Assembly: GCA_963833225.1 (NCBI GenBank)
Contig: CAWHXD010000008.1
Location: forward strand, 224,001 to 288,000
DNA: 64,000 nt
Direction of reading: 5' to 3'
DNA from: an uncultured Chloroflexia bacterium
GTDB taxonomy: Bacteria; Chloroflexota; Limnocylindria; Limnocylindrales; CSP1-4
The notes beneath the pieces were generated by a model, which saw only the letters and a program-made list of their open reading frames with translations, was not told the DNA's origin and made no database searches. Made by a program: the position numbers and the translations under genes. This document shows, piece after piece, positions 31,140-48,443 of the stretch (positions are counted from its first letter, which is position 1; the number at the start of each line of letters is the position of its first letter).

Positions 31140-31580
31140 ATGGGGATGGGACATCGTCTAGTCGCCCTCGCCATTGCACTGCTGCTGGCAGCGTGCAGCG
31201 GCCAGGGCCCCGCGCAGACAGCCGGCTCCCCCGGCCCGACGGGTTCAGCTTCGCCCTCTGGTCCGGCCACATCCGCAGGCTCGGCTGGTGACCTCGACGC
31301 GGCGATCTCGGGACTCGGACTGCCAACGGCATCGGGGCTAACTATCACCGCTGCAGACGTGCGGACCAACGGCGACTGGTCCGCCATCACGGCAGGACCA
31401 TCGACGAACGATCCGGCCCACCCTGTGGCCCCGTTCACGATGGTGATCGGGCACCGCGTCAACGGAGTTTGGCAACTCGTGAGCGAGCGCGATGGGGCAG
31501 CGTTCTGCGCCGCGCTGGATGCCGCGCCGACCGATCTCGGGACCGCCAGCATGCGTGCCTACTACGGGGGGTGCCAGTAG
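31140..31580 (+). CDS. Lipoprotein of unknown function
   Basis: GGAGG SD, lipobox LAAC, Ser/Pro linker, C-terminal Cys pair. Confidence 0.8.
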   Translation: MGMGHRLVALAIALLLAACSGQGPAQTAGSPGPTGSASPSGPATSAGSAGDLDAAISGLGLPTASGLTITAADVRTNGDWSAITAGPSTNDPAHPVAPFTMVIGHRVNGVWQLVSERDGAAFCAALDAAPTDLGTASMRAYYGGCQ

Positions 31581-32611
31581 TGCGTCGCTCCCAGCTCGCC
31601 CTCGCAGTCGTGGTCGCCCTCGCCGCCCAGCCGCTCATCGCAACTCAGAGCGGGGCTGCCGCACCCTACCTCCTGCCCGTCCCGGCAGGGACGGAGGTGT
31701 TGGTGTTCCAGGGGAACAGCAGCGCCTTCAGCCACACGGCGGGATCCAAGGCCCAATACGCCTGGGACTTCACCGTTGGGGCGACCCAATTCCCGGTCGT
31801 TGCGGCGCGGGCTGGCACGGTCATCGGCATGCGGTCGGACTCGACGGCCTCGTGCGACAACGACAGTTGCTGGACGGAGGCCAACTTCGTCCTCATCGAC
31901 CACGGCGATGACAAGACATCGGCGCTCTACCTCCACCTCAAGACCGGTTCCGTCGTGGTGAAGGTCGGCCAAGCCGTCGCGCAGGGGACGCTCCTCGGGA
32001 ATGCCGACTCAACCGGCTACTCGGAGGGCACGCACCTCCACTTCATGGTCGAGGCCACGCCCACCATCCGGACGGCCCCCGGCTGGTGGTGGAGCCAGTC
32101 CGTCCCGATCACGTTCGCCGACGCGGGACGACCGCTGGAGTGGCAGTCCTACACGTCCCGGAACGCGGCCCAAGTCGCTCCCACACCGACGCCTAGCCCG
32201 ACCCCAGTCCCGCCCACGCTCAAGGTGGTGCAGTCGTGCAGGAAGGAGGCCACGCTGTCCAACCCCCCAGTGATCTGGTCGAGCCCCTTCCTCAAGATCA
32301 GGTACACCGGGGACCTCGGGGTGAGGCGCGGGGGGGCGCTCGTGTTCCCGGCTGCTGGCTCGGGCTATCCTGAGACCTCTCCACGCAATGGCGGCATTGT
32401 GGCCCAGTGGGGTGCGGGGATCCAGGTCTGGAATGGGAAGCTCACCGGCAACCCGCTGAAGACCATCACCCCGGACGCTCACTCAGCGTACTTCGAGATC
32501 TCCGAACGCCGTCCGGGGTCCGAGGCTGGGAAGAAGTACTGGGTGGCATTCGCCCCGGCGTCCCCGCACGACCCGACAGCTGTAGAGATCACGATCCGGA
32601 AGTGCCCCTGA
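31580..32611 (+). CDS. Secreted M23 family metallopeptidase with an extra C-terminal domain
   Basis: Signal peptide; H...WDF, PVVAARAG, YLHL, GYSEGTHLHF; start overlaps the upstream stop. Confidence 0.9.
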   Translation: MRRSQLALAVVVALAAQPLIATQSGAAAPYLLPVPAGTEVLVFQGNSSAFSHTAGSKAQYAWDFTVGATQFPVVAARAGTVIGMRSDSTASCDNDSCWTEANFVLIDHGDDKTSALYLHLKTGSVVVKVGQAVAQGTLLGNADSTGYSEGTHLHFMVEATPTIRTAPGWWWSQSVPITFADAGRPLEWQSYTSRNAAQVAPTPTPSPTPVPPTLKVVQSCRKEATLSNPPVIWSSPFLKIRYTGDLGVRRGGALVFPAAGSGYPETSPRNGGIVAQWGAGIQVWNGKLTGNPLKTITPDAHSAYFEISERRPGSEAGKKYWVAFAPASPHDPTAVEITIRKCP

Positions 32612-32619
32612 TATACCGC

Positions 32620-32815
32620 CTTGTGGGTCGATCATGACATCGACCTCCACGGGGAGACCGGTGCGGCCCTATCCGGCAGATGACCGTTGTCGCTAGTGTC
32701 CGGCCCCCGACCTTCGGCCGTGAACGGTGATCGGGATCCTGCGGCAGTTGACCGGTGATCGGACCCGTCAGGTGACGTCGGCCGGGGCGTCCGGGACCCC
32801 CTTGAGGTCCGCCGA
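32620..32815 (+). ncRNA. Predicted IS110 bridge RNA
   Basis: 5' hairpin followed by two stem-enclosed loops with segments matching the reconstructed target and donor sites (see findings). Confidence 0.75.
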
Positions 32816-32830
32816 AGGAGGCTGGCCAGG

Positions 32831-34021
32831 ATGACGACGATCGGGATCGACATCGGGGGACGGACGCACGTCGCAGCCCGCTGCCGGGACGGCGAGTCCC
32901 GGGCCGACCGGGAGATCCTCCGGGTCAGCCAGGACCGAGCGGGCTTCACTGCCCTCGACACCTGGCTCGAGCAGCAGCCGGAACCCGTGACGCTCGTGAC
33001 GATGGAGTCGTCGGGCCACTACTGGATGCCGCTGGCCAGTCACCTGCGGCGGCGCGATGTCCCGGTCGCGGTGGTCAACCCGCTCGCGGCGAAGTACTTT
33101 GCGAGGAGCCGCCTGGGCCGCACGAAGTCCGACCCGGCCGACGCCCGGAGCCTTGCCGAGATGGCCATGCGCGACACGCCCGACACCCGCGATCCGCTCG
33201 CCGGCGCCGAGCTGCGCCAGGCGGCCCGCTTCGCGATGACCCTGGTGACCGAGCAGGCCAGGGTCTGCCAGCGCCTCATCCGCCTCGTCGAGCTCGGCTT
33301 CCCGGAGCTCGGCGAGCTGTTCGACGACCCGACCTGCCGAACGGCCCGGGAGGTGCTGCGCATCGCGCCGACGGCACGCGCTGCCACCCGTCGCCGGACG
33401 TCGACCCTGGCCAACGCCAATGCCGGTCCGGGTCACCGACGCCTCGGGACGGCGAAGGCGGAGTGGCTCCAGGCGGCTGCGGCCGACTCGATCGCGGTGC
33501 CCGGGCTTGACGCCGAGATCGCCTTCGAGGTCGACCTCCTGCTCGACCAGTACGACCTGCTCGAACGCCAGATCGGCGACGCCGACCGGCGGGTCGCGGG
33601 ACTCCTCGACGGCGAGACGGCCAGCCGGCTCCAGACCATCCCGGGTGTCGGGCCCTCGATCGCCGCCACCCTGCTCGCTGAGATCGGCGACATCGGGCGC
33701 TTCACCGACTTCGACGAGCTCCTCGCCTATGCCGGCGTCCACCCGGCCGAGCGGAGCTCGGGCCGCAAGGGGGCGAACCCCGAGACCTCCTGGCACATGA
33801 GCAAGGCCGGCAACGCCAACCTCCGGGCAGCGGCGTACCGGATGGCGGTCGTCGGGGTCCAGCACAACCCGGTCATCGCTGCCCACTACGCCCGGAAGCG
33901 GGCCGCCGGCAAGAGCAAGATGAACGCGCTCGGCCACTGCATGCGCAAGGCTCTGAGCATCGTCTGGGGCGTCTGGCGCAACGGAGCGGACTTCGACCCG
34001 GACTGGGGGGCCGAGGCTTGA
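32831..34021 (+). CDS. IS110 family DEDD recombinase/transposase
   Basis: GIDIG, MESSGHYW, KSDPAD, TIPGVG, YAGVHP..RSSG, SKAGN; AAGGAGG SD. Confidence 0.97.
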   Translation: MTTIGIDIGGRTHVAARCRDGESRADREILRVSQDRAGFTALDTWLEQQPEPVTLVTMESSGHYWMPLASHLRRRDVPVAVVNPLAAKYFARSRLGRTKSDPADARSLAEMAMRDTPDTRDPLAGAELRQAARFAMTLVTEQARVCQRLIRLVELGFPELGELFDDPTCRTAREVLRIAPTARAATRRRTSTLANANAGPGHRRLGTAKAEWLQAAAADSIAVPGLDAEIAFEVDLLLDQYDLLERQIGDADRRVAGLLDGETASRLQTIPGVGPSIAATLLAEIGDIGRFTDFDELLAYAGVHPAERSSGRKGANPETSWHMSKAGNANLRAAAYRMAVVGVQHNPVIAAHYARKRAAGKSKMNALGHCMRKALSIVWGVWRNGADFDPDWGAEA

Positions 34022-34175
34022 CAAGACCCTATGGGATCTAGCGTCTCACGCAAGATCGCCGAGCCGATCATCTGGCGAGCCCCACGGCGGATAGGCTGAC
34101 CAGCGGTCGCATTCGCGCGTTGCGACGATCACGACCGATGAATGCGTGCAGCGGGTCCCCAGATTGGGGGTCCCT

Positions 34176-34250
34176 GCAGCCTCTTGGAGCACCTCTTTGG
34201 CGACGTCATGGAAAGCAGGGTTGCCTATCTGCGCGTACACACGGTCCACC
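34176..34250 (-). pseudogene. Remnant of a third paralog of the adjacent lipoproteins
   Basis: VYAQIGNPAFHDVAKEVLQEA aligns by eye with VYTQTGEQAFYDLAKAVYAQA. Confidence 0.55.
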
Positions 34251-34349
34251 CGTCGGCTGCACCAGGCCCTTCGCGGTGCAGGGCCCGTTGGCCACACCAG
34301 CGGCCGAGTCGGCTCGAACGCGTTGCGTGGTCCTCGCATGCGGGATCGG

Positions 34350-34934
34350 CTACGGATAGTTCCATCCTCCACTCAGCAGGTTTTCCCTCAGGACCTTCAC
34401 CTGGTAGTCGGACAGAGTCGCCGACGCCTGGGCGTACACCGCTTTCGCCAGGTCGTAGAAGGCTTGTTCACCGGTCTGCGTGTAGACGTAGTAGAGCCTG
34501 CCCAGCAACAGCTCGCAGGTCGCTTCGCGGCCCTTTCCTTCGATACTGAGGTTGTGACATTCCCCCCACGCCCCAAGGTATTCCGCCTCCGTGTACAGGT
34601 CGTCGGTGGAACCAGGCGTGCTCCCGAGGGCCCCCTTGAGGGTCTTCGCCACCTTCGTCGCGTTCGGCTTCGGGGCGACTGGGGGTTCGAAGACGCTGGA
34701 GATCGGCAGCAATGACGGCGCCGACGTTGGTGTCGGGGCGGGCTCCGGCGAGGATGTCGGGGTGGGCGTGTCGACCGGTGTCGGCGTGACGGTTGGCGCA
34801 TTGGGCGTGACCGGCGGCTGCGTGGCCGCCTGACTCCCTGCGACATCCGGCGCTGCACTGCCTCCGCACGCGGCGACCATCAAAGCGAGGAGCGTGGCCA
34901 CGACCGTGCCCTTGACTGCCCTGCCCTGCTGCAT
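34350..34934 (-). CDS. Lipoprotein, paralog A
   Basis: Lipobox VAAC, Pro/Thr linker, helical C-terminal domain with two Cys. Confidence 0.85.
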   Translation of the reverse strand: MQQGRAVKGTVVATLLALMVAACGGSAAPDVAGSQAATQPPVTPNAPTVTPTPVDTPTPTSSPEPAPTPTSAPSLLPISSVFEPPVAPKPNATKVAKTLKGALGSTPGSTDDLYTEAEYLGAWGECHNLSIEGKGREATCELLLGRLYYVYTQTGEQAFYDLAKAVYAQASATLSDYQVKVLRENLLSGGWNYP

Positions 34935-48002: not shown

Positions 48003-48443
48003 CTACGCCGACGGCGTGGACTGCTGCTCGTCGACCGGGGTGACTTCGGCCGGCCACTCGGATGCCGGCGCGGCGGCCGCCTCGGCCCCTGCGACTTCCT
48101 GGGCCTCCGTGGCTGCGGGGCCTTCAGCGCCTGCGGCGGGTCCAACCGGGGCCGCGACCTGGCTGGCTGCCGACGCGGGCGGCATGGCGGGCACGGGGGG
48201 CGCCGAGGAGACGGCGGGCAGGGCCGCCTGCGCGGGCGGGGTCGCCGGCGCTGCGCCTGGCGCTTCCGGCGCGGCCGGGGCGTCCATGCTCGTGGACTCC
48301 TTCACGTCGGCCGCCGCCTTGCGGAACTCGCGGATGCTCTTGCCCAGCGAGGCGCCGACATCCGGCAGACGGCCCGGGCCCACGACGATGAGCGCAATGA
48401 TCAGGACGATGATGAGCTCACCCGGTCCGATATTGAACGGCAT
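48003..48443 (-). CDS. tatA: Twin-arginine translocase TatA/TatB
   Basis: GPGELII...GPGRLPDVGASLGKSIREFRK. Confidence 0.9.
   Translation of the reverse strand: MPFNIGPGELIIVLIIALIVVGPGRLPDVGASLGKSIREFRKAAADVKESTSMDAPAAPEAPGAAPATPPAQAALPAVSSAPPVPAMPPASAASQVAAPVGPAAGAEGPAATEAQEVAGAEAAAAPASEWPAEVTPVDEQQSTPSA

Follow-up and report, generated by a model that had tools for sequence, protein, structure and literature searches.

Here we analysed a stretch of 64,000 nucleotides (nt) from an uncultured Chloroflexia bacterium (contig CAWHXD010000008.1, positions 224,001 to 288,000 of the forward strand), referred to below as the window. Positions 32610-34039 of the window are a 1430-bp insertion sequence (IS) of the IS110 group, with the right-hand CT core (34038-39) counted inside. 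The left end comprises 221 nt and the right end extends 18 nt beyond the recombinase stop codon, and a long left end with a short right end is the IS110-group shape in the excerpted text of Durrant et al. 2024 (PMC11208160). We consider it very probable that this element is intact and recently mobile, and that its left end specifies a bridge RNA of about 175 nt resembling that of IS621. The features of the locus are as follows.

32604-32609, + strand: left target GCCC (-4 to -1) and left CT core, with -4 to -1 covarying with the left guide across the family
32610-34039, + strand: insertion sequence, with identical boundaries and differing flanks in three copies in its own genome, and the same ends in related loci
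32610-32615, + strand: right donor GATATA, of which GAT is read by the right donor guide; GATAT is (nearly) invariant in 56 left ends
32622/3-32650, + strand: 5' stem-loop of the predicted bridge RNA, folded in 51 unique homologous segments
32650-32709, + strand: predicted target-binding loop, CGGGG/CCGG (32650-54, 32658-61) with CCGG/CCCCG (32700-03, 32705-09)
32662-32670, + strand: left target guide segment TGCGGCC+CT (TGCGGCCCT), of which only GGCC+CT (32665-70) tracks the target
32690-32696, + strand: right target guide TCGC+TAG, reverse complement of CT-AGCGA, from covariation with the right flank
32713-32786, + strand: predicted donor-binding loop, closing stem TTCGG (32713-17) with CCGGG (32782-86)
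32733-32739, + strand: left donor guide GGGATC(C), sense of right-end GGGAT and core C, matching 6/6 in 62/64 loci
32767-32773, + strand: right donor guide GTCAG (32767-71), reverse complement of CTGAC with a G.T wobble to donor CTGAT, then handshake base G32772
32794-32821, + strand: putative 3' hairpin GGACC/GGTCC (32794-98, 32806-10) and ribosome-binding site AGGAGG (32816-21), read from the sequence and similar in the alignment
32831-34021, + strand: recombinase gene, 396 amino acids, with a DEDD RuvC-like and a Tnp (serine) domain, from Pfam and alignment to solved chains
34018-34023, + strand: TTGACA overlapping the stop codon, a candidate -35 box at conserved spacing, with its role proposed by analogy with IS621
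34030-34039, + strand: left donor, made of TAT (subterminal repeat), GGGAT and the CT core, from the junctions, aligned ends and guide pairing
34040-34044, + strand: right target AGCGT (+1 to +5), read from the flank; the guide predicts AGCGA

The left junction reads AAGTGCCC-CT/GATATA (32600-32615, with the slash at the element boundary) and the right junction TATGGGAT-CT/AGCGTC (34030-34045). The assembly containing the window (3.89 Mb, 20 contigs) holds three copies of the element, all with the boundaries CT/GATATA...GGGATCT/ and each with different flanks. The window copy lies between ..GTGCCC-CT and CT-AGCGTC.., the second copy (L002) between ..AGAGCC-CT and CT-AGCGGG.., and the third (L003) between ..CCGCCC-CT and CT-AGCTGG.. 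A CT core is present at both junctions in all three copies and in the related loci described below. An earlier reading of the window's sequence by itself, referred to here as the original prediction, had placed the ends of the element at these positions, and two further copies now share them. Long terminal inverted repeats are absent; the subterminal inverted repeat comprises 3 nt, TAT (34030-32) and ATA (32613-15), and the alignments show both to be conserved.

Of the 1430 bases, three distinguish the window copy from L002; two lie in the left target guide (32662 T/C and 32665 G/A) and the third in the gene (33716). So few differences indicate very recent transposition, and it is reasonable on the same ground to regard the element as intact. 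L003 (C7:464009-465412) is set apart from the window copy by 31 mismatches and 28 deletions of 1-3 nt and has no full-length frame, and its left donor guide no longer matches its own right end; it is either a decayed copy or a badly assembled, error-rich repeat. The empty target was deduced from the two junctions, and no uninterrupted site was seen when the 600-nt left flank was compared with 41 genomes, 24 of them from the same genus (all hits weak and short, best E 4.8e-6 over ~50 nt). Contigs of four sequencing runs over 32200-34450 cover only parts of the element, come from relatives, and extend over neither the flanks nor the joints; they bear on neither circles nor empty sites. Among these, contigs of related elements in sediment metagenomes (runs X3 and X5) break or differ exactly at the guide words, for example by a loose end ahead of 32669 and by three consecutive differences (32690-92). 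Such breaks are consistent with guide variation among co-occurring copies.

The recombinase matches the whole 155-position profile of PF01548 (DEDD_Tnp_IS110) at residues 4-158 (E 1.9e-27) and PF02371 (Transposase_20) at residues 265-353 (E 2.5e-22), and it aligns to the solved IS621 and ISCro4 chains with E ~1e-23 (phmmer). Against IS621 (8wt6, phmmer), the columns of E60, D102, D105 and S241 hold E, D, D and S in the recombinase, a match that assumes the deposited IS621 chain to be numbered +2 relative to the paper. The motifs MES, SDPADAR and SSG stand opposite IEA, TDTVDAR and ESG of IS621 in the same alignment. IS621 D11 falls outside the aligned stretch, and the N-terminus of the recombinase reads MTTIGIDIGG. 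The AGGAGG ribosome-binding site precedes the start of the gene. That the recombinase is intact had been part of the original prediction, and its full length, the equivalents of these four IS621 residues and the near-identical second copy all agree with this. Many relatives in metagenomes are 88-93% identical, and the named ones are IS110 family transposases of Chloroflexota or Limnocylindrales metagenome-assembled genomes (MAGs).

A scan of one genome per species gave 142 stretches encoding a relative of the recombinase, and the best 80 (59-91% identity) were taken together with the own-genome copies. Going by record titles, most of these best 80 of the 142 loci belong to MAGs of Limnocylindria-like Chloroflexota and of Dormibacterota, and a few to other phyla. 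The left end has blastn similarity in 75 of 83 loci. When aligned, the left ends display a nearly invariant scaffold broken by short hypervariable words: CT/GATAT.., the 5' hairpin, then CGGGGAGACCGG-(7 nt)-CTAT.CGG...CCG.TG-(4 nt)-TAG...CCGGCCC.CG, and then ..GGTGAT.-GGGATCC-..CGG...CCGG-TGAT...ATCAG-N..ACG. The family right end reads ..TTGACA-N10-TATGGGATCT/. The alignment (A1) includes 56 of 58 unique left ends, excluding L003 and L032, which look degraded or hybrid. Guides and flanks were captured by regular expressions, which did not capture truncated loci or foreign 5' left ends (e.g. L009, L040 and L048), and the guide-flank, handshake and donor counts below cover only loci with both members of a pair captured. 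The loci are mutually related, so that permutation counts overstate independence, a bias mitigated by several independent variant classes and by out-of-sample loci.

Each guide covaries with the DNA that it is expected to read. Guide words were paired with the flanks of their own element and compared with permuted pairings. On the left side, identity between guide and flank from -7 to -1 was 0.28, 0.23, 0.28, 0.48, 0.65, 0.74 and 0.85 (65 pairs), against a null of 0.36, 0.28, 0.30, 0.28, 0.27, 0.33 and 0.63. None of 2000 shuffles reached the observed identity at any position from -4 to -1. Positions -7 to -5 were not above the null, with nearly all of the 2000 shuffles reaching the observed identity. 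As only -4 to -1 track the target, the left guide is therefore shorter than in IS621. The right guide was complementary to its flank from +1 to +5 at 0.94, 0.94, 0.79, 0.89 and 0.77 (62 pairs, 47 unique), against a null of 0.86, 0.69, 0.28, 0.29 and 0.32, and none of 2000 shuffles reached these values for +2 to +5. A guide-by-target map of 57 loci contains a same-sense diagonal for left guide -4 to -1 (z scores of 4, 7, 7 and 7) and a complementary diagonal for right guide +2 to +5 (8, 9, 10 and 9), and nothing beyond these two diagonals stands out in it. The guide positions are also the most variable columns of the alignment, between invariant neighbours.

Individual loci illustrate compensatory change. 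For example, the guide GCGTCAG of L083 accompanies the flank CT-GACGC, and CGGTTAG of L078 accompanies CT-AACCG. Even the usually fixed TAG of the right guide changes with the flank, to GAG with CT-C in L022 and to CAG with CT-G in L083. A scan of metagenomes for the scaffold around the left guide of the own-genome copies gave three further, out-of-sample elements, which carry nearly the same left guide and whose left flanks match guide -4 to -1 at 3/4 and 4/4 and whose right flanks match at 5/5 and 4/5. Applied to the effective guide bases of the window copy, the family rule gives a predicted site of about GGCC-CT-AGCGA. This replaces the preferred target of the original prediction, TGCGGCCCTAGCG, in which the three 5' bases (TGC) are unrelated to the target; the principle that the guide tracks the flank holds. 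The 6/9 match of TGCGGCCCT (32662-70) to left target and core, noted at the outset, was found again, and the three left-guide mismatches that the insertion was thought to have tolerated reduce to one in the effective guide, at -3. Other copies and homologs, which had been proposed as the check, have the same ends, a target consensus resembling the loop segments, and covariation between loop and target. In L002, the guide AGCC sits at AGCC-CT-AGCGG, a perfect match on the left side.

Among 19 close pairs of elements that differ at 2-13% over their whole length, guide positions differ at a mean of 0.36, compared with 0.027 for the left-end backbone. The striking case is that of the window copy and L002, with two of three differences in the guide. 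Evolution of the guides by a special mechanism was considered and set aside, as the contrast owes much to the strongly conserved scaffold and change faster than neutral is not shown by it.

The donor guides follow the ends of their own element. The first six bases of the left donor guide recur at the right end in the 62 matching loci as GGGATC (51), GGGACC (5), GGGTTC (3) and GGGACT (3), and the mismatching loci are L003 and L028. Right donor guide and left-end start pair as ATCAG/CTGAT in 58 loci, GTCAG/CTGAC in 2 and GTCAG/CTGAT in 6, the last with a G.T wobble and including the window copy. This amounts to 60 of 67 loci with Watson-Crick pairing and 6 with the wobble, and the remaining one is CCGAG in the degraded L003. 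The right donor guide had first been read as TCAG, which does pair with the left end, but extends by one base to GTCAG with its wobble. According to the excerpted text of Hiraizumi et al. 2024 (PMC11208158), a handshake guide in the donor loop pairs with target position 7 in IS621 relatives. Here 64 of 65 loci have, directly after the right donor guide, a base that complements left guide -1 (G:C 53, C:G 9, A:T 2), a level reached in 0 of 5000 permutations. The window copy has G32772 opposite C32607 (target -1), and the three out-of-sample elements have G after the right donor guide and C at guide -1. For the corresponding handshake of the target loop, loci with a donor ending in AT have AT (14) or TG (22) after the right target guide, and complementarity to the donor is confined to some of the loci.

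The structure predicted for the left end was examined across the family. The RNAalifold consensus of the 56 left ends contains both loops, with the target-binding loop 5' of the donor-binding loop. In the specified structure 94.5% of cells are paired, compared with 91.2 +/- 0.4 in shuffles, with double changes at 8 pairs, and pairing falls to 28-56% when the partners are shifted by 1-3 columns. In the closing stem of the donor loop, four of five pairs have changed on both sides and 94% of cells are paired. The original prediction had closed this loop with CGGCCG/CGGCCG, of which the outer three pairs belong to the covarying helix and the inner three form in only 68% of cells. Inner hairpins pair CGG 32674-76 with CCG 32684-86 in the target-binding loop and CGG 32742-44 with CCG 32752-54 in the donor-binding loop, and the latter is extended as a helix by an insertion in some relatives. 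Despite differing stem sequences, the 51 unique homologous segments fold into the 5' hairpin, with a mean z score of -2.0 and 25 of 51 below -2 (mononucleotide shuffles). G-U pairs occur on this strand only (e.g. 20 of 56 at one pair), and a sense-strand structure therefore fits.

In the excerpted text of PMC11208160, IS621 has a 5' hairpin followed by two loops, the first for target and the second for donor binding, each with its left guide in sense and its right guide in antisense. The guide order read here matches this layout, as had been proposed, and the segments named at the outset covary, across ~60 related elements, with the DNA that they are expected to read. CGCTAG (32691-96, the exact reverse complement of CTAGCG), GGGATC (32733-38) and TCAG (32768-71) all lie where they were first reported. 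Among 20000 shuffles of the 221-nt left end that preserved dinucleotides, 302 contained CGCTAG and 5098 contained GGGATC, 46 had both in order, and 6 had both in order with a later TCAG. This control was chosen after the strings had been seen and is only indicative; the real test is the covariation at the level of the family.

Using the IS621 system as a guide, we propose how the element may move. The predicted bridge RNA would begin with the 5' stem-loop and continue into the target-binding and then the donor-binding loop. In the target-binding loop, the 5' side GGCC-CT (32665-70) would carry the sense of left target and core, and the 3' side TCGC-TAG (32690-96) would be complementary to core and right target. 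In the donor-binding loop, GGGATC (32733-38) on the 5' side would carry the sense of the right end, GTCAG (32767-71) on the 3' side would be complementary to core and left end, and G32772 would be the handshake base that pairs with target -1. By analogy with IS621, the element likely excises as a circle joining TATGGGAT-CT-GATATA. On the circle, the TTGACA of the right end would precede the left end by 16 nt and could drive both the RNA and the recombinase. In each of the 59 tabulated loci, TTGACA (or TTGACC or TTGACT) stands 15-16 nt away from the end of the element, and a combined promoter and terminator scan gave no terminator in the integrated copy. The recombinase-RNA complex would then use 32733-38 and 32767-71 to engage the circle, and 32665-70 and 32690-96 to engage the target, with strand exchange at the CT core into sites like NNNN-CT-A-NNNN, for this copy GGCC-CT-AGCGA. 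We infer from the analogy that the guide acts as RNA, that a circle and a junction promoter are involved, and that the chemistry is the same.

Several observations weigh against this interpretation. At its seventh base (C) the left donor guide differs from core T, and in the window copy the TG that follows the right target guide lacks complementarity to donor 6-7. Left-guide positions -7 to -5 (32662-32664; A1 columns 86-88) vary without tracking any of the target positions between -12 and +12, and none of the internal columns makes a convincing pairing partner for them (best z 3.6 among many columns). The stems of the target loop are almost invariant (>99% of cells paired) and carry no covariation information. 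The single-sequence minimum free energy of 32611-32830 is no better than that of shuffles (-93.2 vs -98.0 +/- 4.3 kcal/mol, z +1.1), and the corresponding structure is without the first loop. A search of 32000-34600 against Rfam 15 with E up to 10 gave no matching family, the two matches (E 8.6 and 9.8) being at chance level. GATATA and TATACC, the two candidates for the -10 of the junction promoter, are imperfect, and a promoter scan found no sigma-70-like promoter in the integrated copy. Lastly, the actual site of the window copy, GCCC-CT-AGCGT, carries two mismatches to the predicted 11-mer, at -3 and +5, and the sole perfect GGCCCTAGCGA 11-mer in the assembly (contig C5, ~48403-48413, minus strand) is unoccupied.

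The last two of these points, together with the mismatches, small deletions and lost frame of L003, would be expected if this were a bridge-RNA element by descent of which the window copy is no longer mobile. We regard this as improbable, given that the frame is full length like that of relatives, with the catalytic columns conserved, and that all guide and structural elements are present. The sister copy with its three differences again points to very recent transposition.

An intact, recently mobile element could also use the same guide segments as single-stranded DNA of the excised element instead of as RNA, in a manner resembling the DNA guides of IS200/IS605 transposons. Sequence covariation alone cannot separate an RNA guide from a top-strand DNA guide, and a 2026 preprint, as excerpted, reports that IS621 mainly excises a single-stranded circle. 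Against this, the left end of IS621 is transcribed into its guide RNA, which is visible in bound form in the structures (PMC11208160 and PMC11208158, both as excerpted). The element here keeps the IS621 loop order and handshake relation, and its conserved TTGACA is placed to transcribe the left end from the circle, so that a DNA guide seems very improbable. The notion that the left end is merely a structured 5' leader or protein-binding region, with the protein picking the target and the flank matches due to chance or composition, draws on the folding energy, the invariant target-loop stems and the frequency of GGGATC by itself in shuffles, but is hardly credible, being already contradicted by hypervariable guide words that change in register with the flanks, by the handshake, and by donor guides that change with the element's own ends, a covariation that a protein-only reading does not predict.

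The bridge-RNA element thus weighed can be compared with known systems. IS621 of Escherichia coli, as described in the excerpted sources, likewise has a DEDD/Ser recombinase, a long left and short right end, a CT core, and the same RNA layout with sense left and antisense right guides that each include the core. It also shares the handshake base after the right donor guide, a short subterminal inverted repeat at the donor and, as a candidate here, a -35 box in the right end. The two differ in several respects. The recombinase here has 396 amino acids compared with 328 in the solved IS621 chain, of which it is a distant relative that aligns in two stretches (phmmer E 8e-23). The effective left target guide is 4+2 nt here and 7+2 in the excerpted account of IS621, whereas the right target guide is 5+2 nt here and 2+2 there. 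Position +1 is nearly always A here, with the target centred on CTAG, the left donor guide pairs with core C and not with core T, and the handshake complementarity of the target loop is absent in the window copy. The repeat is TAT...ATA here and ATA...TAT in the IS621 relatives of the excerpted PMC11208160, and the hosts here are Limnocylindria-like Chloroflexota, Dormibacterota and a few other MAG lineages.

The best-scoring solved relative is the ISCro4 transposase (PDB 9t56, E 3.1e-23), which has the same two domains and catalytic columns and is distant in sequence. The IS1111 group (seekRNA) shares the recombinase family and the two-loop guide principle, but has a long right end with the RNA downstream of the gene and subterminal repeats of 7-17 bp (PMC11208160, as excerpted). 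The element here is unlike that group, with its right end of 18 nt, its repeat of 3 nt and its predicted RNA upstream of the gene. Those defining features of the IS621 type that can be tested by sequence all appear to be present, and the differences are of degree. The element is thus a further IS621-type system, of a kind already known and here found in little-studied bacteria of soil and sediment, and not a new kind of system. Catalogued bridge RNAs were likewise predicted by covariance with target and donor. In the excerpted text of Durrant et al. 2024 (PMC11208160), they are predicted in 85.7% of IS110-group ISfinder entries, and longer right guides are described in some orthologues. A 2026 preprint (10.64898/2026.10.21.760802) mines and clusters bridge-recombinase loci at scale, according to its excerpted text. 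In the literature found that brings IS110, bridge RNA and Chloroflexota together, neither Limnocylindr- nor Dormibacter- is mentioned, and supplementary bridge-RNA tables may already list the clade.

Some of the related loci depart from the common anatomy. L009, L040 and L048 carry unrelated sequence in place of the 5' half of the left end, left target guide included, and keep the donor-binding loop and the gene; these may be truncated or hybrid elements. The last ~30 bp of the right end (TTGACC...TATGGGAT) are tandemly duplicated before the final CT in L059 and L062, and L026, L027, L028, L037 and L077 have a ~20-nt duplication just inside the left end, ahead of the 5' hairpin. In L028 and L077 the right flank is CT/CAGCCC, compared with the guide-predicted CT/AGCCC. 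The one extra C after the core may reflect an offset or off-target insertion.

Targets across the family centre on CTAG, a tetranucleotide ~10 times rarer than the mononucleotide expectation in the genome of the window (1922 occurrences on both strands vs ~20600 expected). In 32 of 39 loci, the TAG of the target ends a frame of 100 codons or more on one strand, compared with 17 and 19 at control offsets. Genomic CTAG sites close such frames in 625 of 952 cases (controls 413 and 561). We therefore did not retain dedicated targeting of stop codons, since genomic CTAG sites behave alike and the effect is largely a consequence of CTAG targeting. In the window, an upstream M23-peptidase-like open reading frame (31469-32611, Pfam PF01551) stops at a TGA composed of the core T and the first bases (GA) of the element, and this stop would read TAG in the inferred empty site. 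With the stop codon rebuilt at the junction, the end of the M23-peptidase-like protein is unchanged by the insertion.

It is possible, though rather unlikely, that the clade has a re-weighted code of its own (4 nt, CT, and A plus 4 nt, with CTAG as the anchor), with landing at gene ends and a separate role for the three variable left-guide bases. In this reading CTAG lies mostly at TAG stop codons, and insertion would fall exactly at gene ends, with the stop rebuilt as TGA and the neighbouring genes left whole. The three non-tracking left-guide bases would then have a separate pairing partner or role. In a weaker form, guide bases would turn over faster than neutral because each new site needs a new guide.

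Bridge recombinases are under development as programmable DNA-insertion tools, and their natural diversity informs guide design. The clade described here amounts to a natural reprogramming series, in which ~60 elements combine a near-invariant scaffold with different 4+4-nt guide words, each with its own insertion site. In this series the left guide is short, the right guide is long and the handshake rule of the donor loop is clear. For the bacterium itself, the element accounts for three repeats in the genome and for the M23 peptidase gene ending at the same codon.

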